From a virus: 64,000 bases of DNA. The translations under genes were made by a program, and so were the position numbers. The notes under the pieces were generated by a model, which saw only the letters and a list, made by a program, of their open reading frames with translations, was not told the DNA's origin and did not search any database. Shown here piece after piece: positions 2,982-22,656 of the stretch (positions are counted from its first letter, which is position 1; each line of letters opens with the position of its first letter). The stretch is taken from positions 1 to 64,000 of the IMG/VR virus record IMGVR_UViG_3300005965_000004; one strand, 5' to 3'.

Positions 2982-3431
2982 TTAGTTCCTCCTATTCAAC
3001 TTGTCAATAGAATTCTTCAATTCTGATGCTATTTTATCTAACAACCTTATGTTGTTTGAAACACTAGCAAGAGAGCTAGCAATGTCCTTACTAACCTTCA
3101 ATTCATCTGACGTTTCTTTGATATTTCTTTGAGTTTCTTTTAGAGACTTTGTAGATTCTGTGAGGTTTCTGACACTCATATCTATTTGAGTATTGTATCT
3201 TCTTAGTATGCTGAGTTCTGATGTTTGTTTTGAAAGACCTTCTAATACTTCTTTGTCCTTTTTAGCTACAGACTTTTGGTTCTCGTAAAAACCCTGGTTG
3301 ACTTCAATAAACTTCTCAAGAAGTAAACTAAATCCTTCTATTGCCGTTGTATGTTTCACAAGAATAGCCGTCTGCCAAACTGCGTAAAAAACAATCAATA
3401 TTATCAAAGCAATTAAAATCCAAGTTACCAT
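2982..3431 (-). CDS. membrane-anchored coiled-coil protein
   Basis: N-terminal hydrophobic helix then heptad-like sequence. Confidence 0.6.
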   Translation of the reverse strand: MVTWILIALIILIVFYAVWQTAILVKHTTAIEGFSLLLEKFIEVNQGFYENQKSVAKKDKEVLEGLSKQTSELSILRRYNTQIDMSVRNLTESTKSLKETQRNIKETSDELKVSKDIASSLASVSNNIRLLDKIASELKNSIDKLNRRN

Positions 3432-11728: not shown

Positions 11729-12121
11729 TTATTTATATTTTTTGTTCCAATCCCTAATTCTATCCATCAAGTCAGAGTAATTGATTGAAGACCTCCAACC
11801 CTTCTCAAGGTTGTTATTATAGGGCATTAGTTTACAATTTGCGGGATGTCTAATAATACCAGGAGGAATATCTCTTTTCCAACCATAGCTTATAGATAGC
11901 ATATGATCACGAGAAAATCCATTAGGATTATCATTATTATACCAACCAAACTCTTCAATCAATTTTAGGTCAAATTCTTTAGGATAATCTTCAAGATTGA
12001 ACCTAAATCTACACATTCGACTATAATCTTTATATGTTAGTTTACTAGTTCTCTTTCTTCTTGGTATCTTTTGCCTTGAGAATTTTCTTTTCTTCAAATT
12101 CAACTTCCTTATGGAAGTCAA
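11729..12121 (-). CDS. HNH-like nuclease domain protein
   Basis: SRDHM.SI..G.....P..I.HPANC.L.....N..K. Confidence 0.6.
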   Translation of the reverse strand: MTSIRKLNLKKRKFSRQKIPRRKRTSKLTYKDYSRMCRFRFNLEDYPKEFDLKLIEEFGWYNNDNPNGFSRDHMLSISYGWKRDIPPGIIRHPANCKLMPYNNNLEKGWRSSINYSDLMDRIRDWNKKYK

Positions 12122-12137
12122 CTTACTTTCATCTCAA

Positions 12138-13083
12138 TTAGAACTCAATGAACTCAGTTATAACCCCATTCTCATCCTCAATCTTGTTATCAGATACAGC
12201 ATAACTGTTAATCCTCTTCCTAGATTTTTCAACATATTCTTCGTTGATTTCAAGTCCTATAAAGTTCCTCCTTGTTCTCTTTGCCTGAATTGCTGTTGTT
12301 CCTGATCCAGAGAAAGGATCAAGTATAACATCACCTTCGTTAGACCAGCTCATTATATGTCCATACGCAAGTTCTGAAGGAAACACAGCAGGATGCCAAT
12401 TCCATTCTGTTATATCTCCACCGGCAGATTGCTCAAGGTTAACTTCCCATACATTGTATCTTATTCCAAACTCACCAAGAGAGTACTTGAAAGAGTCACA
12501 TACGACAAGCTTATCATCTGTCTCTCTCTTGTTCTTCACCTTTGCCCATCGCTTCTTTGGATCAAATCCTTTGTTCTTTCTGTCCTTGATGAGATTTATT
12601 GTCTTGGGCTTTCCCTTTGACATAACGAACATATACTCAAAACATTGGTGGTACCTTAGAGCATCTGGAAACCTTACGCCTGGTTTCTTGTATATCATTG
12701 TATCATGAATGTTGAATCCAATTTCCTGAAAGTAAAGTGCTTGTCTAAATGAATTTCCTGTTTCTGTTGAACCACCATCTAATCCGTCAACGGTTTGGTC
12801 ATTCACAACCCAAACAACAACTCCACCCATTTTAGTTACTCTGAATAACTGTTGAGCAAGCTCTTCAAAAGGAAACGAGTAATTTCCAATCAGTTTTTGT
12901 TTTGTATTGAGTTTTTTGTTGTAGTTTCTTATACCATCGTAACTAATAAGGCGGAGAAGTTACTGTCAAATCAATACAATTTTCTGGAAATGTCTTTAAT
13001 GTCTCGACATTACTTCCAAGGATGATTGTATTGAGTTTATCAGTAAAATCTCCGCCTGTTTTGGCAGACTCCTTTTTACTCAT
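12138..13083 (-). CDS. N4/N6 DNA methyltransferase (beta type) interrupted by a 7-nt stop-containing element at 12939-12945
   Basis: 13083-12946 encodes ...CIDLTVTSPPY then TAG; 12938-12138 continues in another frame as DGIRNY...HPAVFP...ILDPFSGSGTT...IGLEINEEY. Confidence 0.85.
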
Positions 13084-13399
13084 ATAAACTCCTTCTTCTT
13101 AAATAGATTTGGTAAAATATTTCAAACTTATCTTTTTTCTTTCTAATGATATATTACAATCTTATAACCTAAAAATTCTCCAATTTTCAAAATATCGTCA
13201 TATCTATAAGAGCTTAACTCATAAATATTACATTCTATTCTCTTTCTTATTTTAACATTTATTTTGTTCTTTGTCAACATTTTCTTCATGTTTAAAGAAG
13301 TGAACTAACTGTTTTCCATCCATCAATCTTATTCCTGTACCTTTGTCTACCTTGGTGTATTTTTTACCATCAACCCGAAATTCCTCACCAAGTCCGATC

Positions 13400-13784: not shown

Positions 13785-13871
13785 TGGCGGGGGTGAGGGA
13801 CTTGAACCCCCAAGCCGGTTTCCCGACGGTAGCTTTCCAAGCTACTGGCTTACCAATTAGCCATAACCGCC
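13785..13871 (-). tRNA. tRNA-Ser(GGA)
   Basis: GTAGC-TTGGAAA-GCTAC anticodon arm, long variable arm, GTTCAAGTC, CCA. Confidence 0.85.
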
Positions 13872-13904
13872 CATTTGAAAGTATTTATAATCAGTCAATA
13901 TGCT

Positions 13905-14189
13905 TCATGCGGCACCTCTCAAATCATCCAAAAGTTCAAACTCTGATGCGACGAACTCATGGTCCTTCAACTCTTGTAATGTAAGCGGATCAAACCCTTC
14001 TCTTCTTGGGTTTCCACACATACTACAACTACATCTTTTTGTGGTGTTTCCTAATATTCTGGAGTTTATATACATCCATTCATCTTTGTTTCCATTTGTC
14101 CAGTACCAACCTTCTTGTAGTCCTTTTGCTCTTCTGTAACCTTTTGTCTTCTCGATCACTCTACGTTCGTATTTGTTACTTGGATGCAT
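13905..14189 (-). CDS. small conserved phage protein with CSCxMCGNPR motif
   Basis: MHPSNKYERR...CSCSMCGNPRR...LTLQE; the upstream ORF extension lies over tRNA genes. Confidence 0.65.
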   Translation of the reverse strand: MHPSNKYERRVIEKTKGYRRAKGLQEGWYWTNGNKDEWMYINSRILGNTTKRCSCSMCGNPRREGFDPLTLQELKDHEFVASEFELLDDLRGAA

Positions 14190-14207
14190 ACAAACTCCTC
14201 TGAAATT

Positions 14208-14295
14208 TGGTACCCCAGGCAGGACTCCAACCTGCACATCCTCTATGGGATAGTTGGGCTTAAACCAACCGTGTCTTGCATTCCACCACTGGGGC
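14208..14295 (-). tRNA. tRNA-Leu(TAA)
   Basis: GTTGG-TTTAAGC-CCAAC; long variable arm; T-loop TTGGAGT. Confidence 0.85.
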
Positions 14296-14300
14296 AAATT

Positions 14301-14386
14301 TGGTACCGAAGGAGGGATTTGAACCCTCAATCCACGAAGGCAACAGGTTTTGAATCTGTCGTGTATTCCAATTCCACCACTTCGGC
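14301..14386 (-). tRNA. tRNA-Leu(CAA)
   Basis: canonical type II cloverleaf with CCA. Confidence 0.9.
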
Positions 14387-14395
14387 ATATGGTTT

Positions 14396-14527
14396 TTAAA
14401 ACGTTTTATTTTCCAAGTCTTCTTCCTGGACCTCTTCTTGGTGGTACTGAAGAATTTGTACAATTTCCACGACCTCCCCAGTTCTAGCTCCACGCCCTTC
14501 TGGTCCCGTTCCATCTCTGTTAGGCAT
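14396..14527 (-). pseudogene. DUF5320-like small Gly-rich protein, apparently frameshifted
   Basis: MPNRDGTGPEGRGARTG then GRGNC continues in another frame. Confidence 0.5.
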
Positions 14528-14560
14528 AATACAATCCTTTTGGTTTTGCAAAAAATATAT

Positions 14561-14651
14561 TGGCGGAGGCTAGAGGGATCGAACCTCTAAGGCATTTCTG
14601 CTCGCCGGTTTTCAAGACCGATTCCGTCGCCATCCATCGGATTGAGCCTCC
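14561..14651 (-). tRNA. tRNA-Ser(TGA)
   Basis: TCGGT-CTTGAAA-ACCGG; long variable arm; GCCA end. Confidence 0.9.
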
Positions 14652-14660
14652 AAAATTTTA

Positions 14661-14963
14661 TTACTTTTCCTCAACTGCGTAAATATCGTTGTCAGTCAAA
14701 ACGATTTGTGTTGGGTTTCCTGCGTCATCAAACTCAACACCCATGCCACTGTTCTTCAAAAACAAAACTGTCTGTCCAACTTCTACGTCCATTGGAATTC
14801 TTGTTGCGTTCTGATAATGGCCCTTTCCAACAGACAATACCTTACCCTTGTAATAAGGTGTTGGCTTATTTGGAACGAAAAGACCCGACTTTGTAATCTT
14901 TTCTTCATTGTCTTCAATAAGTTCAACGATCAATTTGTTGTACAACGGTGTCAACATAAGCAT
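14661..14963 (-). CDS. groES: co-chaperonin GroES
   Basis: LTPL..KLIV, T.SGL.VP, G.VLSVG.G, PMDVEVG..VLF. Confidence 0.9.
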   Translation of the reverse strand: MLMLTPLYNKLIVELIEDNEEKITKSGLFVPNKPTPYYKGKVLSVGKGHYQNATRIPMDVEVGQTVLFLKNSGMGVEFDDAGNPTQIVLTDNDIYAVEEK

Positions 14964-15117
14964 ACTCCTTTACTTAGATTCAACATACTCTCTGACTTTG
15001 GTTTTCTCTTTCCAAGAAAGACCCTTCCACGAATTCTTCAATTCTTTGTATTTATTCTCATCACCATCTGAAGCTTTTCTGAGAAGCTTTACTGCTTTCC
15101 CTCTCATAGAATCCTCC

Positions 15118-15327
15118 TTATAAACTGTTCAAGACTTTTCTTGTTATTTCAAAATCATTCTTTATTTTAGAAAGCCTGTCTCTGAAATATTCCAAAACTT
15201 CTATCTTAGAGCTTTCTGATTTCTCATATTTACTTATTAAAGAATCATTAGCTATTATTTCACTTTCAATCTGTTCAACATAAAGCTCTAATCTCTCTCT
15301 GAGTGATGCTTCGTATACTCTTTTCAT
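15118..15327 (-). CDS. small hypothetical protein
   Basis: ORF from MKRVYEA; upstream extension overlaps a tRNA. Confidence 0.5.
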   Translation of the reverse strand: MKRVYEASLRERLELYVEQIESEIIANDSLISKYEKSESSKIEVLEYFRDRLSKIKNDFEITRKVLNSL

Positions 15328-15345
15328 ATAACTCTTAGTTAAAAT

Positions 15346-15424
15346 TGGTGAGGTAGACAGGATTTGAACCTGCGATATTCTGATTGGCAATCAGACCCAG
15401 TTGACCAGGCTGTGGCACTACCTC
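15346..15424 (-). tRNA. tRNA-Gly(GCC), atypical D arm
   Basis: TCTGA-TTGCCAA-TCAGA; GAGGTAG/CTACCTC acceptor, A discriminator. Confidence 0.7.
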
Positions 15425-15440
15425 ATTTTTCATCATTAAA

Positions 15441-15515
15441 TGGTGCCCGTTGGTGGAATTGAACCACCGACCTCTTGTACGTCAAACAAGCATTCTTCCA
15501 CTGAACTAAACGGGC
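15441..15515 (-). tRNA. tRNA-Val(GAC)
   Basis: canonical cloverleaf. Confidence 0.9.
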
Positions 15516-15518
15516 ATA

Positions 15519-15776
15519 TTATATTCTATCATTTTTGTTTATCTTTGTCAATAGATTTTTAAATTCTGGTTTATGTGGAAGCATACAACCAGAACAGTCT
15601 TTTACAACTTCCATCATCGTTCTCATGTATTTAGGCTTTCCACCGAAATTTTCACAATCTCTGTCATACAAAGGACATTTACAAAACTCACAACTAAACC
15701 TCACACAAGGATTGTCATGGCAAGGGTAAAACTCACAGCAATTTGCCATAGAAAATAACTCCTTATTCATTTTCAA
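15519..15776 (-). CDS. cysteine-rich small domain protein
   Basis: CEFYPCH, C.FC.CPLY..C..GG, KDCS.C.LPH. Confidence 0.8.
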   Translation of the reverse strand: MKMNKELFSMANCCEFYPCHDNPCVRFSCEFCKCPLYDRDCENFGGKPKYMRTMMEVVKDCSGCMLPHKPEFKNLLTKINKNDRI

Positions 15777-15788
15777 TTATTTATAAAA

Positions 15789-15887
15789 CAGGATAGATAG
15801 TGTGCCGTCCACACGGCATCTTCCCCATAATGGCGGGGAAGATAGGAGTCGAATCTATTTTTGTTTGTTTTGCAGAAGCTATCCTTC
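15789..15887 (-). ncRNA. stem-motif RNA copy 4 with permuted tRNA-like domain
   Basis: GAAGGATAGC-TTCTGCAA...T-loop TTCGACT, CTTCCCC-GCCA-TTAT-GGGGAAG closed acceptor stem, TGCCG-TGTGGA-CGGCA D-like arm...CTATCCTG. Confidence 0.75.
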
Positions 15888-15903
15888 ATTTACAAATAGA
15901 AAT

Positions 15904-15987
15904 TGGTAGGGGTGGTGGGATTTGAACCCACGTTTTCAACGTACCGCTACAGTTATACTGCTTATAAGACAGCACTGGTACACCCCT
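15904..15987 (-). tRNA. atypical tRNA with TAT anticodon (D arm absent or relocated)
   Basis: AGGGGTG acceptor, only 7 nt before the GCTGT-CTTATAA-GCAGT arm, long extra segment, normal T arm and CCA. Confidence 0.65.
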
Positions 15988-15993
15988 ATATGT

Positions 15994-16294
15994 GAAGATT
16001 GTTCCTGTACCCGGGATTCTGTCATTGAAGACGTACATTTATCTAATGCCACTAACCCGACTATCACTGAGTTGCTCACCCTCTAAGTCTGTTTGTGTCG
16101 CTACCTAGGTAGTGAAAATGACTGTTCAGTTCACTCCAGACTTCTTCGAGAGGTCTGTGTCAGGATTTGAACCTGTTACCAACACCCGCCATACTGATTT
16201 GTTTTTTAGGTGCAGTCTCCTACCGTGAGCAAAGTAGTCCCGAAGTTCCTCCCCTGGCTACAAGAGCCTCAGGCGTACGTCCAGAACAATCTTC
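15994..16294 (-). ncRNA. rnpB: RNase P RNA (compact, phage-encoded)
   Basis: P1 GAAGATTGTTC/GAACAATCTTC; GAGGAACTTCGGG (CR-I) pairs with ACAGAATCCCGGGTA (CR-V, P4); TAGATAAATG (CR-IV). Confidence 0.85.
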
Positions 16295-16303
16295 AAAGAA
16301 CAT

Positions 16304-16388
16304 TGGTAGCGGGGGTTGGATTTGAACCAACGTTTCGCAATCGCGACTTGGTTATGAGCCAAGTGAGTAGCCACTACTCTACCCCGCA
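16304..16388 (-). tRNA. tRNA-Met(CAT) with long variable arm
   Basis: CTTGG-CTCATAA-CCAAG; 1:72 mismatch; TCGC-GATT-GCGA extra arm. Confidence 0.8.
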
Positions 16389-16395
16389 GTAAATT

Positions 16396-16471
16396 TGGTA
16401 CCCCTACAAGGAATCGAACCTTGACCTTCAGGTTTAGGAAACCTGTGCGCTTTCCATTATACCATAGGGGT
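16396..16471 (-). tRNA. tRNA-Arg(CCT)
   Basis: CAGGT-TTCCTAA-ACCTG. Confidence 0.88.
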
Positions 16472-16478
16472 ATAAAAT

Positions 16479-16553
16479 TGGCTGGGGTGGAAGGGTTCGA
16501 ACCTCCGACTTCCTGGTTCAGAGCCAGGCGTTCTTCCACTGAACTACACCCCA
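16479..16553 (-). tRNA. tRNA-Gln(CTG)
   Basis: canonical cloverleaf. Confidence 0.92.
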
Positions 16554-16557
16554 ATAA

Positions 16558-16634
16558 TGGCACGCCTGGCAGGACTCAAACCTGCAACACTTCGCTTAGA
16601 AGGCGAATTTTCTATTCAATTGAAATACAGGCGC
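16558..16634 (-). tRNA. tRNA-Arg(TCT)
   Basis: TTCGC-CTTCTAA-GCGAA; T-loop TTTGAGT. Confidence 0.88.
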
Positions 16635-16643
16635 TTAAAATTT

Positions 16644-16718
16644 TGGTACTCCTACGGGGAGTCGAACCCCGGTTACATGGCTGAGAACCACGCGTCCTAA
16701 CCACTAGACGATAGGAGC
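16644..16718 (-). tRNA. tRNA-Glu(CTC)
   Basis: canonical cloverleaf. Confidence 0.92.
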
Positions 16719-16897
16719 AAAAAATTACTTTTCGACCTTTGGAACAATTCTTCCTTCAAACTTATCTCCGTCAAGTACTCCATGAAATATAGGAATATCG
16801 CTACCTATTTTTCTTGCTTCATCTCTTGCTTGGTTCAATCTCTCAAAAGGTCCTACGTATTTATTATCGTTCACTACAAAAAAACCCTGTTTTGTAC

Positions 16898-17086
16898 TCA
16901 TGTCAATGCTCCATTTCCGAAACCACATTCATCATCATGTTCTCTTACTAATTCTTCGATCCATTTGTCCCTCAAAGTATTTCTACAATTCCAACAATAA
17001 GGTAAAGCTTTATGGAATACAAAATGTACATTGACTTTACCAGGAACGAATTCTCCACATTCAACACATTTTACAAAGTACTTCAT
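16898..17086 (-). CDS. small zinc-finger protein
   Basis: CxxC...CxxC in a 62-aa ORF between tRNA blocks. Confidence 0.55.
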   Translation of the reverse strand: MKYFVKCVECGEFVPGKVNVHFVFHKALPYCWNCRNTLRDKWIEELVREHDDECGFGNGALT

Positions 17087-17324
17087 TCGATGTTTTCCTT
17101 GTCAATCTCTTCATTATACTTACGTATATATCTCATTAGGAAAATAGCCTTGTCATCTCTCTTGAAAGTAGCATTTCCAATTTCCTTCTTGTCATGAATG
17201 GGTACAGGAAACCATTATCAGTCTTGTACCACATTTCACCATCTCTGTAATATTCAAAATGTACTTCCTGATCCTTAACAAGGTCTATCATTTTTATAAT
17301 GGACTTCTTCGATATTAATTATAA

Positions 17325-17400
17325 TGGCGGGACCGACGAGATTTGAACTCGCATTTTCCACATTGACAGTGTGGTGCTCTACCAGTTGAGCTACAGCCCC
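17325..17400 (-). tRNA. tRNA-Asp(GTC)
   Basis: canonical cloverleaf. Confidence 0.92.
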
Positions 17401-17409
17401 GAAAAATTG

Positions 17410-17510
17410 TGGACGATGTGTGACGACTTGGCATCACTGACACAAACACGCCTTTGTGTCCCATCTCAATATCAGTGTTATGTGCGTGACAACTGATATT
17501 ACATCGACCA
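17410..17510 (-). ncRNA. unknown four-way-junction RNA
   Basis: closing stem TGGTCGATGT/ACATCGTCCA plus three internal hairpins. Confidence 0.55.
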
Positions 17511-17515
17511 ATAAA

Positions 17516-17591
17516 TGGTACCTCTGAAAGGACTCGAACCCTTAACTCTTCGTTCGTAGCGAAGTATGATTTCCTGTTTCACTACAGAGGC
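17516..17591 (-). tRNA. tRNA-Arg(ACG)
   Basis: CTTCG-CTACGAA-CGAAG. Confidence 0.9.
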
Positions 17592-17597
17592 AAAAAT

Positions 17598-17674
17598 TGG
17601 TACCCAGTAGAGGATTCGAACCTCTGATCCCTTGCTTGTAAGGCAAGTGCCTTCTACCGCTCGGCCAACCGGGC
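17598..17674 (-). tRNA. tRNA-Val(TAC)
   Basis: CTTGC-CTTACAA-GCAAG. Confidence 0.9.
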
Positions 17675-17681
17675 ATATATT

Positions 17682-17759
17682 TGGTACCGGGAGAGAGATT
17701 CGAACTCTCAAAAAACACTGGTTCTAAGCCAGCTGCATATGCCATTCTGCTACCCCGGC
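17682..17759 (-). tRNA. tRNA-Leu(TAG) lacking the usual long variable arm
   Basis: GCTGG-CTTAGAA-CCAGT. Confidence 0.85.
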
Positions 17760-17770
17760 ATTTTATCAAA

Positions 17771-17839
17771 TGGTGATGTCGGGGAGACTCGAACTCCCAT
17801 TACACTAAGCCGCGATACCACTGTTTAAAAGCCGACATT
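17771..17839 (-). pseudogene. tRNA-like element with acceptor stem, T arm and CCA but no anticodon arm
   Basis: ATGTCG/CGACAT, GGGAGTTCGAGTCTCCC, ACCA. Confidence 0.5.
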
Positions 17840-17909
17840 TACAGACTCCTGTTAAAATTCTTATTGTGTGCAACATTTATAATATAACATATTCCATGTT
17901 AATTGTCAA

Positions 17910-17992
17910 TGGCACCCGTGGTAGGATTCGAACCTACATTTTCAGTTCCAATTACCTTTACTGAGGTAGAAGCTCAGCAGGACTACACGGGC
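17910..17992 (-). tRNA. atypical tRNA with TCT anticodon (D arm absent or relocated)
   Basis: GCCCGTG acceptor, 7-nt linker, GCTGAG-CTTCTAC-CTCAGT, D-loop-like AATTGGAA after the anticodon arm. Confidence 0.65.
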
Positions 17993-18006
17993 ATTTTTAG
18001 TATTTA

Positions 18007-18080
18007 TGGAGCTGCTATTCGGATTTGAACCGAAATCTTTTCCTTTACGAGAGGAAAGCTTTACATTAAGCTATAGCAGC
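18007..18080 (-). tRNA. tRNA-Thr(CGT)
   Basis: TTCCT-CTCGTAA-AGGAA. Confidence 0.85.
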
Positions 18081-18383
18081 GTATTTTCTATCTCTAAGTT
18101 TTCTTTGAATTCTTCCATTTCCACGATTCGCACCTTTAGAAGTTTTTGTTAAACTGTGGCAGTTTGGGCAAAGTAAAGTTAAATTTTCTTCTTTACTGTT
18201 ACTGGCATTTCCATCAATATGTTCAATTTCTAATGGAATATTTCTAGTAAATTCATTGACTTCGTTCCAACCACATCTTGAACATTTTGAATCAAACTTT
18301 TTGAAAATATATCTTTTTACATAATTGGAAAGATTTTCTTCTCCAACTTTATTTCCAGAAACTTTTTTTGTTTTTCCAATCAT
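18066..18383 (-). pseudogene. N-truncated HNH endonuclease within the tRNA array
   Basis: KCSRCGWNEVN..T..IPLEIEHIDGN..N..EENL.LLCPNCHSLT. Confidence 0.75.
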
Positions 18384-18447
18384 TGACAGAATCGAACTGT
18401 CGTTACTACTATACCAAAGTAGCTTTCTACCATTGAAATAAGCGGGC
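18383..18447 (-). pseudogene. tRNA-Thr(GGT) missing its 3' acceptor strand
   Basis: 5' strand, D arm, CTACT-TTGGTAT-AGTAG and T arm intact, then runs directly into HNH sequence. Confidence 0.7.
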
Positions 18448-18467
18448 ATTTGTCAAGAATTTTTATA

Positions 18468-18554
18468 AGCTAGTGGACGGATTCGAACCGCCGCGTGGCT
18501 TTCGCCATCCTCCTTACAAGAGAGGCGCAATCGACCAGACTATGCGACACTAGC
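18468..18554 (-). tRNA. tRNA-Thr(TGT) with long variable arm, no encoded CCA
   Basis: CCTCT-CTTGTAA-GGAGG; TGGC-GAAA-GCCA arm. Confidence 0.8.
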
Positions 18555-18564
18555 ATATTAAATT

Positions 18565-18658
18565 TGGCGGAGAGCTAGAGAATCGAACTCTAACCGGCAT
18601 ATTTTATCCGGGACACTTTAGCAGAGTGCTCCAACGAACCAATATTTGGCTGCTCTCC
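18565..18658 (-). tRNA. tRNA-Ser(GCT)
   Basis: GCACT-CTGCTAA-AGTGT; long variable arm. Confidence 0.88.
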
Positions 18659-18668
18659 AAAATTAAAT

Positions 18669-18793
18669 CAGAATGGACTTTTGCTTTACTTGTGCTCTAC
18701 CAGTTGAGCTACCCTCCCATAATGGCGGAAGGGGCAGGACTTGAACCTACAACATCAAGTTGGACTTAGCGTTAATTGCTGTAGCCATTCTTC
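18669..18793 (-). ncRNA. stem-motif RNA copy 5, YrlA-like with circularly permuted tRNA domain
   Basis: GAAGAATGGC-TACAGCAA...GTAGGTTCAAGTCCTGC (T arm) CCCTTCC-GCCA-TTAT-GGGAGGG (closed acceptor) TAGCTCAACTGGTAGAGC (D arm)...CCATTCTG. Confidence 0.8.
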
Positions 18794-18811
18794 CTTTATT
18801 TTCAAAGAATT

Positions 18812-18886
18812 TGGTCGTAGCCCAGGGAATCGAACCCTGTTGAGACTGGATATGAGTCAGTCTAAGATGCCAACCTACCGACTACG
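18812..18886 (-). tRNA. tRNA with CAT anticodon (Met or Ile2), atypical
   Basis: ACTGA-CTCATAT-CCAGT; T arm and CCA. Confidence 0.7.
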
Positions 18887-18910
18887 AAAAATCGTTCTAT
18901 AGGATATATT

Positions 18911-18985
18911 TGGTGGAGACGGTGGGAGTCCAACCCACCAAAAAAACCTTGCAAGGGTTTCTCGCCTGCCCGACTGTTCGTCCCC
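18911..18985 (-). tRNA. tRNA-Ala(TGC), atypical D arm
   Basis: G3:U70 acceptor GGGGACG/CGTCTCC, AAACC-CTTGCAA-GGTTT, T-loop TTGGACT. Confidence 0.75.
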
Positions 18986-18994
18986 ATTATCTCA

Positions 18995-19052
18995 CAGGAT
19001 GATTTTTTCTCTTTTACCATAAAGATTTTTGAGATTGCTGAACTCATCCTTC
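18995..19052 (-). ncRNA. stem-motif RNA copy 6 (minimal)
   Basis: GAAGGATGAG-TTCAGCAA...TCATCCTG. Confidence 0.65.
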
Positions 19053-19069
19053 TGAGTTATTTACAAAAA

Positions 19070-19146
19070 TGGTCGGGATGGAGGGATTCGAACCCCCGAT
19101 TCCTCGGCCCCAAACCGAGTGACCTACCAAACTAGCCTACATCCCG
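19070..19146 (-). tRNA. tRNA-Pro(TGG)
   Basis: canonical cloverleaf. Confidence 0.92.
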
Positions 19147-19154
19147 ATGAAAAT

Positions 19155-19231
19155 TGGTATCGACGACCGGATTTGAACCGGTGATTTTCACATTGAAAGT
19201 GTGATGGATTAGACCACTATCCTACGCCGAC
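19155..19231 (-). tRNA. tRNA-Glu(TTC)
   Basis: TCACA-CTTTCAA-TGTGA. Confidence 0.88.
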
Positions 19232-19423
19232 ATTGATATCTATAATATAATAGATTCAAGAGTCTTTGTCAAGTCCTTTCTTCATTTTTTCTTCTTCAAG
19301 CATCTTCATTGTGAATCTCGATTCAGCTATAACTTCATAGTAACTGTCATCCACGAATCTTTCAAGAAGACTAATGATCCTCATTACTCTTTCTATTTTT
19401 CTGTCTTCCATTTGTCGAGTTCC

Positions 19424-20083
19424 TTATATAACAATATCAGCAAAAGGTTTTAGCTTCTCGACTTCCTTACATTCCATTTCAACAACTTTTGCCCTGAAGT
19501 CGCTTGTCTCGTTTTCTTTCTTCCTTTTGTTTCTGAAGTCAAATGTCGATTTTGGGTCTGTGTTTCCAATATGTATTCTAACATCAGAACAAATCTTATT
19601 ATGACATCCATACAAACCTTCAAAAATCAAAATGTCACAATTAGACTTATCTATGCTTGCCTGTATAATAGCAGTAGAGAACTTTGACATTATGAAGAAC
19701 TGTATGTTATTATATAGTGGATTTTTGAATGTTTCAAAAGTCCAACAAAGTCTCTTCCAATCCCATTCATTAGGACCAACAGTATCCAAGTTTTCTTTTC
19801 TCACATCATTTCTTATATGCCACGGTGTTTTGTAATAATCATCACCAGAAATAATGTGACATTGCTTTCCAGAATTAATGAAGTATTCTGCTAGCTTGAA
19901 TGCTGTTTCTGACTTCCTAGTTCCAGAAATTCCACCAACTGAAATTATAGCTTTTTTCAGCAAAATTTTCTTGTCAAGTCTGTCAATTATTCTTTTGGCA
20001 TTCTTCTCACTAACACTGTCCCAAACTAAATAATCTCCAAACATAAGCTTTCCCTTTTTTCTTGAAAGAGTGTTAAAAATCAT
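19424..20083 (-). CDS. P-loop kinase, uridine kinase-like
   Basis: ISVGGISGTRKSE (variant Walker A), ISGDDYY, ILIFEGLY. Confidence 0.7.
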   Translation of the reverse strand: MIFNTLSRKKGKLMFGDYLVWDSVSEKNAKRIIDRLDKKILLKKAIISVGGISGTRKSETAFKLAEYFINSGKQCHIISGDDYYKTPWHIRNDVRKENLDTVGPNEWDWKRLCWTFETFKNPLYNNIQFFIMSKFSTAIIQASIDKSNCDILIFEGLYGCHNKICSDVRIHIGNTDPKSTFDFRNKRKKENETSDFRAKVVEMECKEVEKLKPFADIVI

Positions 20084-20108
20084 CGCACTCTTATTTAGGG
20101 ATTTGAAA

Positions 20109-20184
20109 TGGTGCCGCCTTTGGGAATCGAACCCAACTCTTCACGGGCTTCAACCGAACGCTTCTCCAGTATAGCTTAGACGGC
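20109..20184 (-). tRNA. tRNA-Phe(GAA)
   Basis: CGG-TTGAAGC-CCG anticodon arm; T arm; CCA. Confidence 0.8.
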
Positions 20185-20193
20185 ATAAAATTA

Positions 20194-20270
20194 TGGTGGA
20201 TGGACTCTGAATTGAACCGAGGACACCCTGGATTTTTAGTCCAGTGCTCTACCAGCTGAGCTACCCAGCC
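20194..20270 (-). tRNA. tRNA-Phe with AAA anticodon
   Basis: CTGGA-CTAAAAA-TCCAG on a Phe-like body; mismatches in T and acceptor stems. Confidence 0.65.
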
Positions 20271-20279
20271 ATAAAATAT

Positions 20280-20354
20280 TGGTACTCCCACGGGGAGTCG
20301 AACCCCGGTTACAGGACTGAAAACCCTGTGTCCTAGCCACTAGACGATAGGAGC
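20280..20354 (-). tRNA. tRNA-Glu(TTC)
   Basis: canonical; near-duplicate of the tRNA-Glu(CTC) body. Confidence 0.9.
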
Positions 20355-20360
20355 ATAAAT

Positions 20361-20447
20361 TGGTACTGCGGGTGGGATTTGAACCCACGTCGGCTTTCAC
20401 CACACCTTATCAGAGTGTTGCCTGACACCGGACTCGGCTACCGCAGT
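20361..20447 (-). tRNA. tRNA-Ile(GAT) with long variable arm
   Basis: ACACT-CTGATAA-GGTGT; GGT-GAAA-GCC arm. Confidence 0.82.
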
Positions 20448-20456
20448 ATAAAAATT

Positions 20457-20535
20457 CAGGATGGTTAGTTTGATGGATTTGAACCATCTAAGATGTCGAT
20501 TAGAAGTCGATGTTGTTATGCTGAAACCATCCTTC
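20457..20535 (-). ncRNA. stem-motif RNA copy 7 carrying an anticodon-like arm (TCT) and a T arm
   Basis: GAAGGATGGT-TTCAGCAT...TCGA-CTTCTAA-TCGA...GATGGTTCAAATCCATC...ACCATCCTG. Confidence 0.72.
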
Positions 20536-20551
20536 TCTTATTTACAAAATT

Positions 20552-20637
20552 TGGAGTCCCGGTAGGGAATTTCACCCATTATACTTTTAATACTTGGCCG
20601 TTCCTCTCCAAGCATCTACGCCTTTTACGCTCGCGAC
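20552..20637 (-). pseudogene. highly diverged tRNA-like element
   Basis: imperfect acceptor GTCGCG/CGGGAC-TCCA, extended ATGCTTGG/CCAAGTAT arm, altered T loop. Confidence 0.4.
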
Positions 20638-20643
20638 AAAATT

Positions 20644-20732
20644 TGGAGCACCCGGTGGGATTCGAACCCACGCCCTCAATGGGGTCATACAGTTTTGCAG
20701 ACTGCGGCCTTAATCCACTTGGCTACGGATGC
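20644..20732 (-). tRNA. tRNA-Cys(GCA) with long variable region
   Basis: GCAGT-CTGCAAA-ACTGT; U73. Confidence 0.82.
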
Positions 20733-20740
20733 TTAAAAAT

Positions 20741-20816
20741 TGGGGTGACATTTCGGACCCGACCCGAACCCTACAGCTTCACAGGCTGCAATGCTTCCAA
20801 CTACACCAATGTCACC
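20741..20816 (-). tRNA. tRNA-His(GTG)
   Basis: G-1:C73, GCAGC-CTGTGAA-GCTGT; non-canonical T loop. Confidence 0.8.
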
Positions 20817-20825
20817 ATAAATAAC

Positions 20826-21006
20826 GGGGACGTGCTTCCGTTACACTTCATTTCCTAGTAGGTATCAAGACTTACATTTGAATTACTTTACAATTGACAA
20901 CATTTCGAAGACTAGCCAATTGTGATTAGATTGCGCACTCCAATCAAATTCAAAAATAACGCTTAATACGTTTCAAAAAGCTTGGAATCGAACCAAGTCC
21001 TTCTCC
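20826..21006 (-). ncRNA. circularly permuted tRNA-like RNA with about 120-nt insert
   Basis: T arm CTTGGTTCGATTCCAAG comes first and D arm GTGTAACGGAAGCAC last. Confidence 0.5.
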
Positions 21007-21059
21007 ATGAATTTCATACCATATAAAAAGGTATGGTAGAATTTGTACCTACTTTAATT

Positions 21060-21139
21060 TGGAGCACCCGGTGGGATTCGAACCCACGATGATTTCCTGC
21101 TTGGAAGGCAGGCGCAATCGACCACTATGCGACGGGTGC
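21060..21139 (-). tRNA. tRNA-Gly(TCC)
   Basis: CCTGC-CTTCCAA-GCAGG; U73. Confidence 0.9.
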
Positions 21140-21153
21140 GTATTTACAAAAAT

Positions 21154-21241
21154 TGGCTGATGAGGAGGGATTCGAACCCCCGACGGGCTTTCGCCATCTG
21201 ATTAACAGTCAGACCCCTGCTGCCAACTCGGGTACTCATCA
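21154..21241 (-). tRNA. tRNA-Asn(GTT) with long variable arm
   Basis: TCTGA-CTGTTAA-TCAGA; GGC-GAAA-GCC arm. Confidence 0.85.
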
Positions 21242-21284
21242 GTAAATTATATTAATCCTATTTTTATCAATCTTTTCTTAACGG

Positions 21285-21317
21285 ATAGGTATATTTTTAC
21301 ATGAAATATCTAACTGT
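21285..21317. repeat. 33-bp exact dispersed repeat (second copy at 318-350)
   Basis: ATAGGTATATTTTTACATGAAATATCTAACTGT at both positions. Confidence 0.85.
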
Positions 21318-21327
21318 TAATTAATTT

Positions 21328-21406
21328 TGGCAGTCTCGACGGGATTTGAACCCGCGACCTTCTCGTTGACAGCGAGAAATCCTAGACCTGACTAGACCAC
21401 GAGACT
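21328..21406 (-). tRNA. tRNA-Asp(GTC)
   Basis: TCTCG-CTGTCAA-CGAGA. Confidence 0.88.
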
Positions 21407-21413
21407 GTGAAAT

Positions 21414-21492
21414 TGGTCTGGACGGTAGAATTCGAACCTACGTGATCCCGGTTCCAGGCCGCGTGACTCAAGCCATACTAGCATACACCCGG
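21414..21492 (-). tRNA. tRNA-Pro(TGG)-like, 5' strand shared with the upstream tRNA-Lys
   Basis: CGG-CCTGGAA-CCG arm, T arm, ACCA; 5' acceptor overlaps 21484-21492. Confidence 0.55.
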
Positions 21493-21567
21493 ATGGATTC
21501 GAACCATCGATGCGCTTTCGCGTCCACATTAAAAGTGTGGTACTCTCGACCTCTGAGTGACGGGTGC
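21484..21567 (-). tRNA. tRNA-Lys(TTT) with long variable arm, no CCA
   Basis: CCACA-CTTTTAA-TGTGG; CGC-GAAA-GCG arm. Confidence 0.78.
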
Positions 21568-21749
21568 GTAAAAAATTTAGTAATAATTATCTCAAACCAT
21601 AATATTCATGTTACATTGAACTATCTTTGTACCTTTTTCTTGTTTACCAACAAAGGATTTGGCACAAAACTTACTACAAAAATCTCCATTACTCCACTTA
21701 CTATATTTTTTCAGTGAACTTTTTTCAAACTTTTTTACAGGTTGGAACT

Positions 21750-21824
21750 TGGCAGACCCGGAGGGATTCGAACCCACATCTGCTGGTTTTGGAGACCAGT
21801 GTGTTACCGTTACACCACGGACCT
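21750..21824 (-). tRNA. tRNA-Trp(CCA)
   Basis: CTGGT-CTCCAAA-ACCAG. Confidence 0.92.
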
Positions 21825-21836
21825 GTAAAGAAATCT

Positions 21837-21911
21837 TGGTTACCGGGGCAGGATTCGAACCCACATCCTTTGAGTCAAAGTCAAACATCCTAGCCATTGG
21901 ACGACCCGGCA
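21837..21911 (-). tRNA. tRNA-Gln(TTG)
   Basis: TTTGA-CTTTGAC-TCAAA. Confidence 0.88.
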
Positions 21912-21924
21912 ATAAATTTACTTA

Positions 21925-22009
21925 TGGTGGGCATGGACGGAGTTGAACCGCCACAGTCGAAAGACGGGTGGGTTACAGCCACTTGAGCTCGCCAATGCTC
22001 AGCCTACCC
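21925..22009 (-). tRNA. tRNA-Tyr(GTA)
   Basis: GTGG-CTGTAAC-CCAC; variable arm. Confidence 0.85.
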
Positions 22010-22026
22010 ATCAAAAGTAAATTTAT

Positions 22027-22113
22027 TGGTTCTGCGGGAAGGATTCAAACCTTCATAGCCATAAAGTCGACGGATTTACAGTCCGCTGATTTCGTCCACT
22101 TACCATCCGCAGA
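22027..22113 (-). tRNA. second, divergent tRNA-Tyr(GTA)
   Basis: GCGGA-CTGTAAA-TCCGT; U1:A72 acceptor; T-loop TTTGAAT. Confidence 0.8.
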
Positions 22114-22121
22114 ATAAAATT

Positions 22122-22199
22122 TGGTACCCCCGTCTGGACTCGAACCAGAACCTTACAGATTAAGAGTCTGCCATGCTAATCCAATTACAACACGGAGGC
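22122..22199 (-). tRNA. tRNA-Lys(CTT)
   Basis: GCAGA-CTCTTAA-TCTGT. Confidence 0.9.
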
Positions 22200-22578
22200 A
22201 AAAGTGAGTGTGTTACTAAAATCTCTTTAGCGTTTTTCGCAAAATGATTCTTTCACACACTCTTATATGTAAAATTTACATCTTCAATGTAAATTCACAT
22301 TCAGTACAAGTTGCTTTCGCAACAATGTGCTTACGTCAGTTTCCAGAAATGTCAAAAAGCCAAAAAAAGAGAGTCAGATTTTTACCTGACTCTCTTTGAT
22401 ATTCCAAGTATCTTATGAGTCAGGTTAGGCAGTGCCTCCTTCTGGTCTATCTGTAATATTAGCACTGAGCCAATTATAGACCACGGATATGGCACTAAAA
22501 TAATGCTGCTTGCCTTGTTTTTGAATTGTCTGTTTACAAATGCGTTCCATAAGATTACCTTTTCTTTCCTTTTCCTTT

Positions 22579-22656
22579 TGGTTGCAACGGGTTGGAATCG
22601 AACCAACTTTTCTCTGCTTATGAGACAGAGCGAGATGCCAACCTCTTCCCCCTGCT
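22579..22656 (-). tRNA. tRNA-Met(CAT), possibly initiator-like
   Basis: TCTGT-CTCATAA-GCAGA; 3' end TTGCAACCA with unpaired 1:72. Confidence 0.75.

Follow-up and report, generated by a model that had tools for sequence, protein, structure and literature searches.

Can a gene still yield its product when the reading frame stops right behind the catalytic motif of the enzyme it encodes? The question is raised by a DNA methyltransferase gene on the minus strand of the stretch analysed here, which we call the window: the first 64 kb (64,000 nucleotides, nt) of an 85,394-nt viral contig of ~33% G+C (IMG/VR record IMGVR_UViG_3300005965_000004). The gene is cut in two by a few bases that begin with a stop codon, and an earlier note on this DNA had proposed that ribosomes cross them by a programmed hop of 7 nt. 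This explanation is the best supported of those we considered and nothing that we found contradicts it; that the hop takes place is what we infer from the features described below. As read from the sequences compared, the 7 nt form the 3' border of a mobile homing-endonuclease cassette, and they are probably passed over by a programmed short translational bypass.

A 7-nt insert after the catalytic motif of a methyltransferase

The first open reading frame (ORF1, 46 codons, 12946–13083, minus strand) opens at the ATG 13083–13081. This ATG is preceded, 5 nt upstream, by a Shine-Dalgarno (SD)-like AAGGAG read from the sequence (13089–13094, minus strand). ORF1 encodes an N-terminal extension (MSKKESAKTGG...) followed by a replacement of the methyltransferase N-terminus up to SPPY, and ends with ACT TCT CCG CCT TAT, directly before TAG. 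The TAT (12946–12948, minus strand), which the sequence and the alignment of relatives assign to the Tyr of the catalytic SPPY, is the proposed take-off codon. The coding gap that follows, TAG T TAC (12939–12945, minus strand), comprises 7 nt: the stop TAG at 12945–12943, one T, and the proposed landing codon TAC at 12941–12939. Downstream of T TAC, the frame GAT GGT ATA AGA AAC TAC runs for 266 codons to a TAA at 12140–12138 (ORF2, 12138–12938, minus strand, TAA included) and encodes the remainder of the enzyme (DGIRNY...DPFSGSGTT...). ORF2 matches PF01555 (N6_N4_Mtase) over profile positions 20–219 of 221, with E = 7e-36 and 124.6 bits for a cut-off of 26.7. The gap divides the motifs of a PF01555 methyltransferase, SPPY being in ORF1 and DPFSGSGTT in ORF2. 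We take SPPY to be motif IV, (S/D)PPY, DPFSGSGTT to be the S-adenosylmethionine motif FxGxG, and the enzyme to be a beta-class N6/N4 DNA methyltransferase. The first in-frame ATG of ORF2 is codon 37, and no SD precedes it.

The earlier note had read the first frame in the same way, up to SPPY and a stop at TAT TAG T TAC, and had stated that removal of exactly 7 nt gives SPPY-DGIRNY; both statements hold. A search with the break read through with X found thousands of relatives, and 23 of them were aligned. An uninterrupted sequence of the SPP-YDGIRNY type is present in all 15 full-length relatives, one of which is 95% identical; in the other eight the region is missing or takes more distant forms. 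The DNA of four relatives out of four (L161, 95% amino acid (aa) identity, L081, L082 and L001) reads CCN TAT GAY, with a gap of 7 columns relative to the window. The methyltransferase gene of the window thus carries exactly 7 nt more than its relatives. Due to the TA..TA ambiguity this insert can be written TAGTTAC, TATTAGT or in other registers.

The insert is not an assembly error, since two contigs from two other studies (X4 and X7) cross the site with the same 7 nt and without indel. The runs that hold the region (15 runs, eight studies) are labelled hypersaline lake, microbial mat, marine sediment and lagoon; no RNA run is among them. The 46-aa ORF1 fragment is on record in identical form from nine contigs. 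Seven N-terminal fragments of 45–48 aa in public protein sets (78–100% identity), which have in common the extension KE[ST]AK.GGD, all stop right after SPPY. These sets store the 46-aa and the ~230-aa pieces of the methyltransferase as separate proteins.

A long hairpin abuts the take-off codon

A long imperfect hairpin lies inside ORF1 (12949–13057, minus strand). It includes the inverted repeats I1 and I2, and its 3' arm is formed by the codons ...TFPENCIDLTVTSPP, the last base of which immediately precedes the take-off codon. At the base, the stem AGGCGGAGA/UCUCCGCCU spans 13057–12949, so that its last base, 12949, abuts TAT. For the 184 nt that begin with the ATG the folding energy is -51.6 kcal/mol, and shuffled sequences give -26.8 ± 3.6 kcal/mol (z = -6.95; none of 200 shuffles as good). 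Both this z value and the stem coordinates bear out the hairpin of ~110 nt, with a 3' arm ending on the base before TAT, that had been described earlier.

The 5' arm GGCGGAGA, which pairs with the SPP codons, is translated G-G-D in the window and L-A-E-I in L363, a more distant relative. Its conservation in two different reading frames suggests that selection acts on the RNA rather than on the peptide, and points to a hairpin maintained at the RNA level. Covariation gives modest support, from two diverged hairpins only: when the 41 pairs of the window hairpin are compared with those of L241, another gapped relative, 25 are unchanged, four are changed on one side, four on both sides and eight are broken in the MAFFT register, the last class being due in part to a shift of the alignment register.

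The sequence AAACTCAATACAA occurs twice on the minus strand, in the 5' arm of the hairpin (13026–13038) and 26 nt past the gap (12902–12914). The segment TTGTATTGA of the 3' arm could pair with either copy, and a pairing that encloses both take-off site and gap is possible.

The insert is the edge of a homing-endonuclease cassette

The 5' part of the cassette holds a 48-aa ORF (13143–13289, minus strand), a decayed C-terminal stump of a LAGLIDADG homing endonuclease recognised by its similarity to the protein P0130: over 43 aa it is 93% identical to residues 195–237. P0130 itself (265 aa) matches PF14528 (LAGLIDADG_3) with 40.3 bits for a cut-off of 22.5, and PHROG 4645, 'endonuclease', with E = 8e-58; it is encoded on a contig of 6,529 nt, a length shared by the X4 contig. 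The stump of the window is a 48-aa C-terminus without the LAGLIDADG domain, i.e. not an active member of the family.

The comparison with L161, which is 95% identical and cassette-less, delimits the element. By blastn, L161 and the contig are 94–96% identical on both flanks and the block 13270–13021 is unaligned; these 250 nt (13021–13270, minus strand) are absent from L161, where 95 nt stand instead. Between 13020 and 12946 the identity of the two DNAs is ~79%, and right after the gap ~97% (manual count on the alignment). The cassette-less form is also found in contigs X6 and X9, which join 12942 and 12932, respectively, to 13271 with 166 and 176 other letters. X4 carries ~650 extra nt at 13271–13277, together with two insertions of 1 nt, behind 13132 and behind 13163, by which the endonuclease frame stays open, on to a TAA. 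With these two insertions the end of the endonuclease gene, read with the C-terminus of P0130, overlaps the ATG of the methyltransferase by 8 nt, out of frame. From these comparisons the parts of the cassette are an endonuclease stump, a new SD and ATG, the N-terminal extension, the replacement N-terminus, the hairpin and the gap.

Over 12893–13099 X4 does not differ from the window and X7 differs at three positions; the gene body downstream differs by ~8%. Since the cassette is near-identical in diverged backgrounds, it probably entered each genome recently. This bears on how ORF2 is to be read. Among the window, X4, X6, X7 and X9, 18 of the 22 variable places are at third codon positions of ORF2 (P ~ 4e-6), and the 14–16 nt changes seen among the compared contigs lead to two or three aa changes. 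We did not accept this bias as proving a bypass, since the cassette seems to be a recent acquisition. For the same reason the absence of decay downstream of the gap, which the earlier note had stressed, is weak evidence, even though ORF2 is indeed intact.

The stump starts at TTGACAA (13270–13286, minus strand). The same heptamer ends the part of the upstream gene shared with L161, and in the loose end of X7 it follows ...AAAAAGATA. The loss of the first ~194 codons of the endonuclease looks like a deletion between two short repeats. L161, the closest relative of this phage region, is in a bin labelled as a Methanosarcinales archaeon; given the T4-like gene content it is probably a mis-binned phage contig. 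In six other methyltransferase loci (L033, L041, L042, L267, L277 and L289) the full gene is closely preceded, at ~3001–3200, by a second, short fragment that resembles a methyltransferase C-terminus. These fragments may have been left behind by other cassette insertions, or may be tandem genes.

A second copy in the helicase gene uvsW

A second gap of the same form is present on the plus strand of the window, in uvsW. The N-terminal piece of the helicase (56607–58436), identified from its translation, contains an intein-like insert and has a C-terminal extension of the cassette type. It is followed by a new ORF1 of 20 codons, MKPKKIEEIKSPGHILVGTY (58447–58506), which opens at ATG 58447 and ends with the proposed take-off codon TAT (58504–58506). 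The gap, TAG C TAA (58507–58513), is again of 7 nt and contains stops in frame 0 and in frame +1. ORF2 (58514–58807, 97 aa) resumes with GCT ACG and encodes the helicase motifs up to QSIGRGLR and the C-terminus. A G+C-rich hairpin of 12 bp, AAGTCCCGGCCA / TGGTCGGGACTT (58476–58504), ends on the first base of TAT (z = -3.63, none of 200 shuffles as good), and the same stem is found in two other loci, L409 (z = -4.03) and L412 (z = -4.48).

When the junction is read through with two X's, T4 UvsW (PDB 2OCA) is collinear across it (E = 7e-21), with a gap of two residues exactly at the X's, and more than 25 phage loci read ...GTY|ATxSTG... unbroken at this site. ORF2 of copy 2 has neither ATG nor GTG, and its sole TTG is codon 89. 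Since the +1 frame meets TAA in the gap and ORF2 lacks a usable start, joining the two parts requires the skipping of at least 7 nt; on the sequence, +1 frameshifting and independent initiation are excluded for this copy. The match to UvsW extends to 2,562 phage records, mostly T4-like, and together with the match to T4 UvsW itself it identifies the window as part of an uncultured T4-like phage.

The gap is TAG T TAA in L409 (76% aa identity in ORF2) and TAG C TGA in L412 (66%). In these two loci an ORF of 288 or 315 aa lies between the N-terminal piece of uvsW and the new ATG, which it overlaps out of frame; it matches PHROG 12434/655, 'HNH endonuclease' and 'homing endonuclease' (E from 3e-12 to 3e-8). 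The HNH-type endonuclease at the uvsW gap is thus lost in the window and kept in L409 and L412, while the tail of the N-terminal piece, ...KIFLDEDSYIVVNKKDK...WIKSKKVFKK, is conserved in all three.

The intein-like insert, CLHPSTIITMSDG...NGICVSNC, follows the DE motif of the N-terminal piece, so that three features meet in uvsW of the window: this insert, a split of the gene accompanied by extension tails, and the coding gap. The counterpart of the insert in L412 is itself broken up by an ORF of 318 aa, which has matches to a TnsA-like endonuclease and to NUMOD3. The 'split helicase' annotated with an endonuclease beside uvsW in Morganella and Serratia phages was set aside as a different site: the split is further downstream, presumably at the UvsW/UvsW.1 boundary.

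Gaps and hairpins go together

The earlier note had suggested a scan for a stem followed by the junction motif at frame breaks. The bare motif TATTAGNTAH is not enriched in the contig (four found for 3.2 expected), nor is CCNCCNTATTAG with one mismatch. The combination of stem and stop proved more selective. A strict scan of the whole 85,394-nt contig for stems of at least 7 bp, with at least five G:C pairs, ending one codon before a stop, picks 11 of the 10,134 stops, and the only real split genes among them are those at 12945 and 58507, both with TAT TAG N TA. Other picks were discarded: 71170 is in a Ser-rich low-complexity frame, 16520 inside a tRNA, and those at 560xx are tandem repeats.

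Two further gapped alleles of the methyltransferase were found in other phages. L241 (67% aa identity to the window) has an in-frame gap of 9 nt, TAG ATA TCG, between SPP and Y, i.e. reading through it would place three residues inside SPPY; its hairpin has z = -3.81, and no endonuclease is seen upstream. L363 (~48% aa identity) has a gap of 4 nt, TGA C, after SPPY, a hairpin with z = -4.68 and an intact HNH endonuclease (PF01844) just upstream; it still has the parental N-terminal fragment upstream of the endonuclease. Among the loci fetched, a stop with a short gap occurs at three of 373 distinct D....xPP sites.

All six gapped alleles carry a 5' hairpin: z is -6.95 for the methyltransferase of the window (LAGLIDADG stump, 7-nt gap after SPPY), -3.81 for L241, -4.68 for L363, and -3.63, -4.03 and -4.48 for uvsW of the window, L409 and L412. 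By contrast, none of seven ungapped sequences has one: L161 (-0.25), L243 (-1.11), L001 (-1.68), L081 (-0.61), L407 (-0.03), L408 (-0.90) and the parental fragment of L363 (-1.36). In the gapped alleles the end of the stem is always 0–1 nt from the take-off codon. The gap always starts with a stop directly after this codon, TGA in L363 and TAG in both copies of the window, L241, L409 and L412. TAG thus opens five of the six gaps, yet it is the rarest stop of the contig and ends only eight of its 70 long ORFs.

The wider collections gave few further cases. In the viral collection the 7-nt junction pattern has no match, and the 16-mer of copy 2 occurs in eight contigs, of which two are genuine and six are chance matches. 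When the same collection was scanned with the N-terminal fragments, the L241 contig was the only one returned for this type of N-terminus. The phage collection contains no close relative of the region. The frame breaks of L292 (2995–3010) and L393 (2970–2985) lie inside runs of 7–8 G and are unrelated to the gap element; they could reflect phase variation or homopolymer sequencing errors.

How the gap could be crossed

The cassette would have entered the 5' end of the methyltransferase gene with a LAGLIDADG gene, a new ribosome-binding site and start, and the extension, replacing the first ~40 codons. Its end, TAG-T-TAC, would sit between the Tyr codon of SPPY and the next codon and, by analogy with MobA and gene 60 of T4, would break the recognition site of the endonuclease and make the carrier DNA immune. 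A ribosome translating ORF1 would unwind the long hairpin. Once peptidyl-tRNA-Tyr is on UAU in the P site, with the slowly decoded UAG in the A site, the 5' arm would already be outside the mRNA exit and the 3' arm, i.e. the SPP codons, inside the ribosome, in the exit channel. Re-zipping of the stem as the mRNA emerges would pull the mRNA and favour forward movement. The tRNA-Tyr would then release its codon and, after a slide of 7 nt, re-pair with UAC, and decoding would resume at GAU to give ...TSPPY-DGIRNY..., with whatever efficiency. The phage tRNA-Tyr with anticodon GTA (22027–22113, minus strand, found by ARAGORN) is the tRNA that we propose to hop. In uvsW the same module would act at UAU UAG C UAA and decoding would resume at GCU, re-pairing being limited to two of the three positions on UAA, or on UGA.

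A wider interpretation is possible, which we put forward tentatively. Spring hairpin and stop may form a modular micro-bypass that any homing endonuclease could use, immunising the carrier while the host gene stays working, with a slide of fixed length, 4–9 nt. Such a module would need neither a take-off stem-loop nor an internal SD and would tolerate non-cognate landing on UAA, UGA or GAC. If true, this would be a bypass driven by structure, which would differ in mechanism from that of gene 60 and might be widespread in large phages.

Several observations weigh against the bypass. The matched landing codon of the earlier note is real in copy 1 (UAU/UAC), but copy 1 is the only case: the landing triplets are UAA in copy 2 and L409, UGA in L412 and GAC in L363, and the pair in L241 is CCG/UCG. 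Canonical re-pairing at these unmatched triplets is doubtful. Of a stem arm of 9–12 bp, a 7-nt hop releases no more than a part from the ribosome, so that the spring model is qualitative. With a cassette that probably entered each genome recently, the intactness of ORF2 and its third-position bias may be due to selection that predates the insertion. The relatives of P0130 in the viral collection are at most 48% identical, and no convincing gap was found downstream of 80 such genes. Finally, the search with N-terminal fragments detects open ORFs only, which introduces an ascertainment bias in the set of fragments that stop after SPPY.

Alternatives to a bypass

Some of these observations would also be expected if the cassette were simply a selfish knock-out. 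The cassette and its insert would then protect only their own DNA, nothing would be translated across the gap, the split genes would be recent pseudogenes or produce the ORF1 peptide alone, and the hairpin would act at the DNA level or be incidental. Phage methyltransferases are often dispensable, and a selfish cassette could be tolerated in them. The near-identity of the cassette in diverged genomes, insertions that look recent and an ORF2 not yet decayed fit this scenario, as does the decay or loss of the endonuclease genes themselves. It leaves unexplained, however, the strong stem at the take-off codon in six of six gapped alleles and none of the seven ungapped ones, the conservation of the 5' arm of the stem in two different reading frames, and gaps that begin with a stop, in five cases of six the rare TAG. 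Nor does it account for ORF1 fragments that, down to 78% identity, keep methyltransferase-like residues and the same end. It fits uvsW poorly, a gene conserved across T4-like phages (2,562 records). We therefore consider a knock-out unlikely.

A programmed +1 frameshift at UAU UAG could apply to the methyltransferase only. The +1 frame of copy 1 is open across the site, and the product would be SPPY-S-Y-DGIRNY or SPPY-Y-DGIRNY, with one or two extra residues; the 4-nt gap of L363 is also formally equivalent to a +1 shift over the stop. But such extra residues in the catalytic loop are found in none of the 15 full-length relatives. The shift is impossible in copy 2, L409 and L412, where the +1 frame meets TAA or TGA, and it is irrelevant to the in-frame 9-nt gap of L241, so that one kind of element would need three mechanisms. 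This makes frameshifting very unlikely.

Removal of the gap from the RNA would leave translation ordinary. The gap could be spliced out as a micro-intron, be cut out and the ends re-ligated by phage RNA repair enzymes, or be skipped by a polymerase that jumps at the hairpin; lying directly 5' of the insert, the hairpin might flag a site of processing. To our knowledge no splicing or repair system removes 4–9 nt. Moreover the gaps vary both in length (4, 7 and 9 nt) and in sequence, and their only conserved boundary is the leading stop, which has a meaning for a ribosome and none for a nuclease; gene 60, the closest studied analogue, is translational. We consider this explanation very unlikely. 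Reassignment of TAG was discarded, because the frames differ across the gap, the tRNA bank of the contig includes no suppressor tRNA and TAG does end eight of 70 long ORFs.

Although the contig is of metagenomic origin, a sequencing or assembly artefact, or a mutation private to one assembled genome, has next to no chance of being the explanation, given the same 7 nt in X4 and X7, ORF1 on nine contigs, six diverged ORF1 variants with the same end, the copy that uvsW of this contig carries and the related gaps of L241, L363, L409 and L412.

Comparison with known bypass systems

T4 gene 60 has been for decades essentially the sole well-studied natural bacterial bypass. In the accessible text of a preprint on gene 60 and the associated endonuclease MobA (Manning & Atkins 2022, 10.1101/2022.08.31.505936), the endonuclease overlaps the N-terminal extension by 8–32 nt out of frame, a homologous replacement region shares 67–81% identity with the parental DNA, the insert extends to the landing codon or slightly beyond, and in many cases the endonuclease has become a pseudogene or has disappeared, with the bypass retained. 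The elements described here resemble this system in many respects. The gene of a conserved enzyme is broken up by bases that begin with UAG, immediately downstream of the take-off codon, and its flanks are collinear with uninterrupted homologues, both for the methyltransferase and for uvsW. The succession of endonuclease, out-of-frame overlap (8 nt here), extension, replacement region (~79% here) and insert up to the landing codon is the same. The endonuclease is decayed or lost in the window with the gap kept, and intact in P0130, L409, L412 and L363. Copy 2 is a split gene with C- and N-terminal extension tails, and both systems belong to T4-like phages.

The differences concern target, endonuclease and signals. 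The same preprint, in its accessible part, presents the MobA element as exclusive to a topoisomerase gene, with a cassette that 'remains unique' and a shortest gap of 20 nt (10.1101/2022.08.31.505936). The target is the large subunit of topoisomerase there, and a PF01555 methyltransferase and uvsW here. MobA is an HNH endonuclease, whereas, compared by family only, those met here are LAGLIDADG (copy 1) and HNH-type (relatives of copy 2, and L363). The gene 60 gap measures 50 nt, in contrast to 7 nt here (4–9 nt in relatives), and its take-off codon is GGA or GAY, in contrast to UAU (CCG in L241). A gap of 4–9 nt is too short to hold a take-off stem-loop or an internal SD, and the sole strong structure is wholly 5' of the take-off codon; landing triplets, as seen above, are often unmatched. 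The nascent-peptide signal of gene 60, KKYK, is ~25–30 aa from the P site. Here the N-termini of ORF1 are Lys-rich (MSKKE, MKKKE, MKPKK) and these stretches are 42 and 16 residues from the take-off codon. As for the 5' stem-loop of gene 60, the accessible text of a review proposes zippering of the mRNA at the exit as a drive of bypass (Atkins et al. 2016, PMC5009743), and what is available of a 2024 preprint argues for the same drive.

A short natural gap is published for the Hau3 terminase, a phage gene in which bypass of 10 nt in E. coli was established by mass spectrometry, according to the part of the report available (PMC10732093). It too is a short frame-disrupting insert, with flanks adjacent in relatives and a slow-to-decode A-site codon, and a junction peptide was found for a UAA version. 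But the first codon of the Hau3 gap is UUA, a rare sense codon, and the gap is proposed to have a regulatory role in which host tRNA is sensed; in the same part of the report neither an endonuclease cassette nor an abutting 5' hairpin is described.

Synthetic stop-hops, reported in 1987 and summarised in the accessible text of PMC5009743, are hops in which the peptidyl-tRNA leaves its codon with a stop in the A site and re-pairs a few nt further on. Natural short counterparts have long been presumed, and in the same accessible text no natural in-frame stop-hop is known (PMC5009743). UAU-UAG-U-UAC has the same form, a stop in the A site and a matching codon downstream. The synthetic hops were artificial and of low efficiency, as far as that text goes, whereas the gap here involves a frame change, a dedicated hairpin and a mobile element.

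The byps inserts of Magnusiomyces capitatus mitochondria are 27–55 nt long. They are many, short and mobile, and are skipped with imperfect take-off/landing pairs, as presented in the accessible part of PMC5009743. Mobile short inserts in coding genes and imperfect pairs are features in common with our gaps; the byps differ in being mitochondrial, with an unused A-site codon, independence of the mRNA context and a relaxed mitochondrial decoding (PMC5009743, same part).

In the literature that our search covered we found no endonuclease-linked gap of 4–9 nt in a methyltransferase or in uvsW and no LAGLIDADG-linked bypass, although additional target genes or gap sizes may be given in Tables S1/S2 and File S1 of the 2022 preprint. 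If the bypass is true, the strategy of gene 60 would be general, open to other endonuclease families and other genes. Its signals would shrink to a stop codon and a 5' hairpin, i.e. a minimal and easily mutated system for the zippering drive. The annotation of large phages would also have to change, such genes being now called as two fragments or as pseudogenes.

Neighbouring features

Directly after the methyltransferase, a 130-aa ORF (11729–12121, minus strand) matches PHROG 23051 (unknown function, E = 4e-30) and no Pfam family. It displays a DH...N...H pattern that is nuclease-like by eye, and is also present in the cassette-less L161.

The tRNA bank (13785–22655, minus strand) comprises 37 genes for most amino acids, several of them unusually long (up to 94 nt).

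Tandem palindromic units containing TAGGCCTAG, 26 nt apart, occupy 55937–56125 (plus strand), at a change of sign of the GC skew; they may mark a divergent promoter or an origin region.

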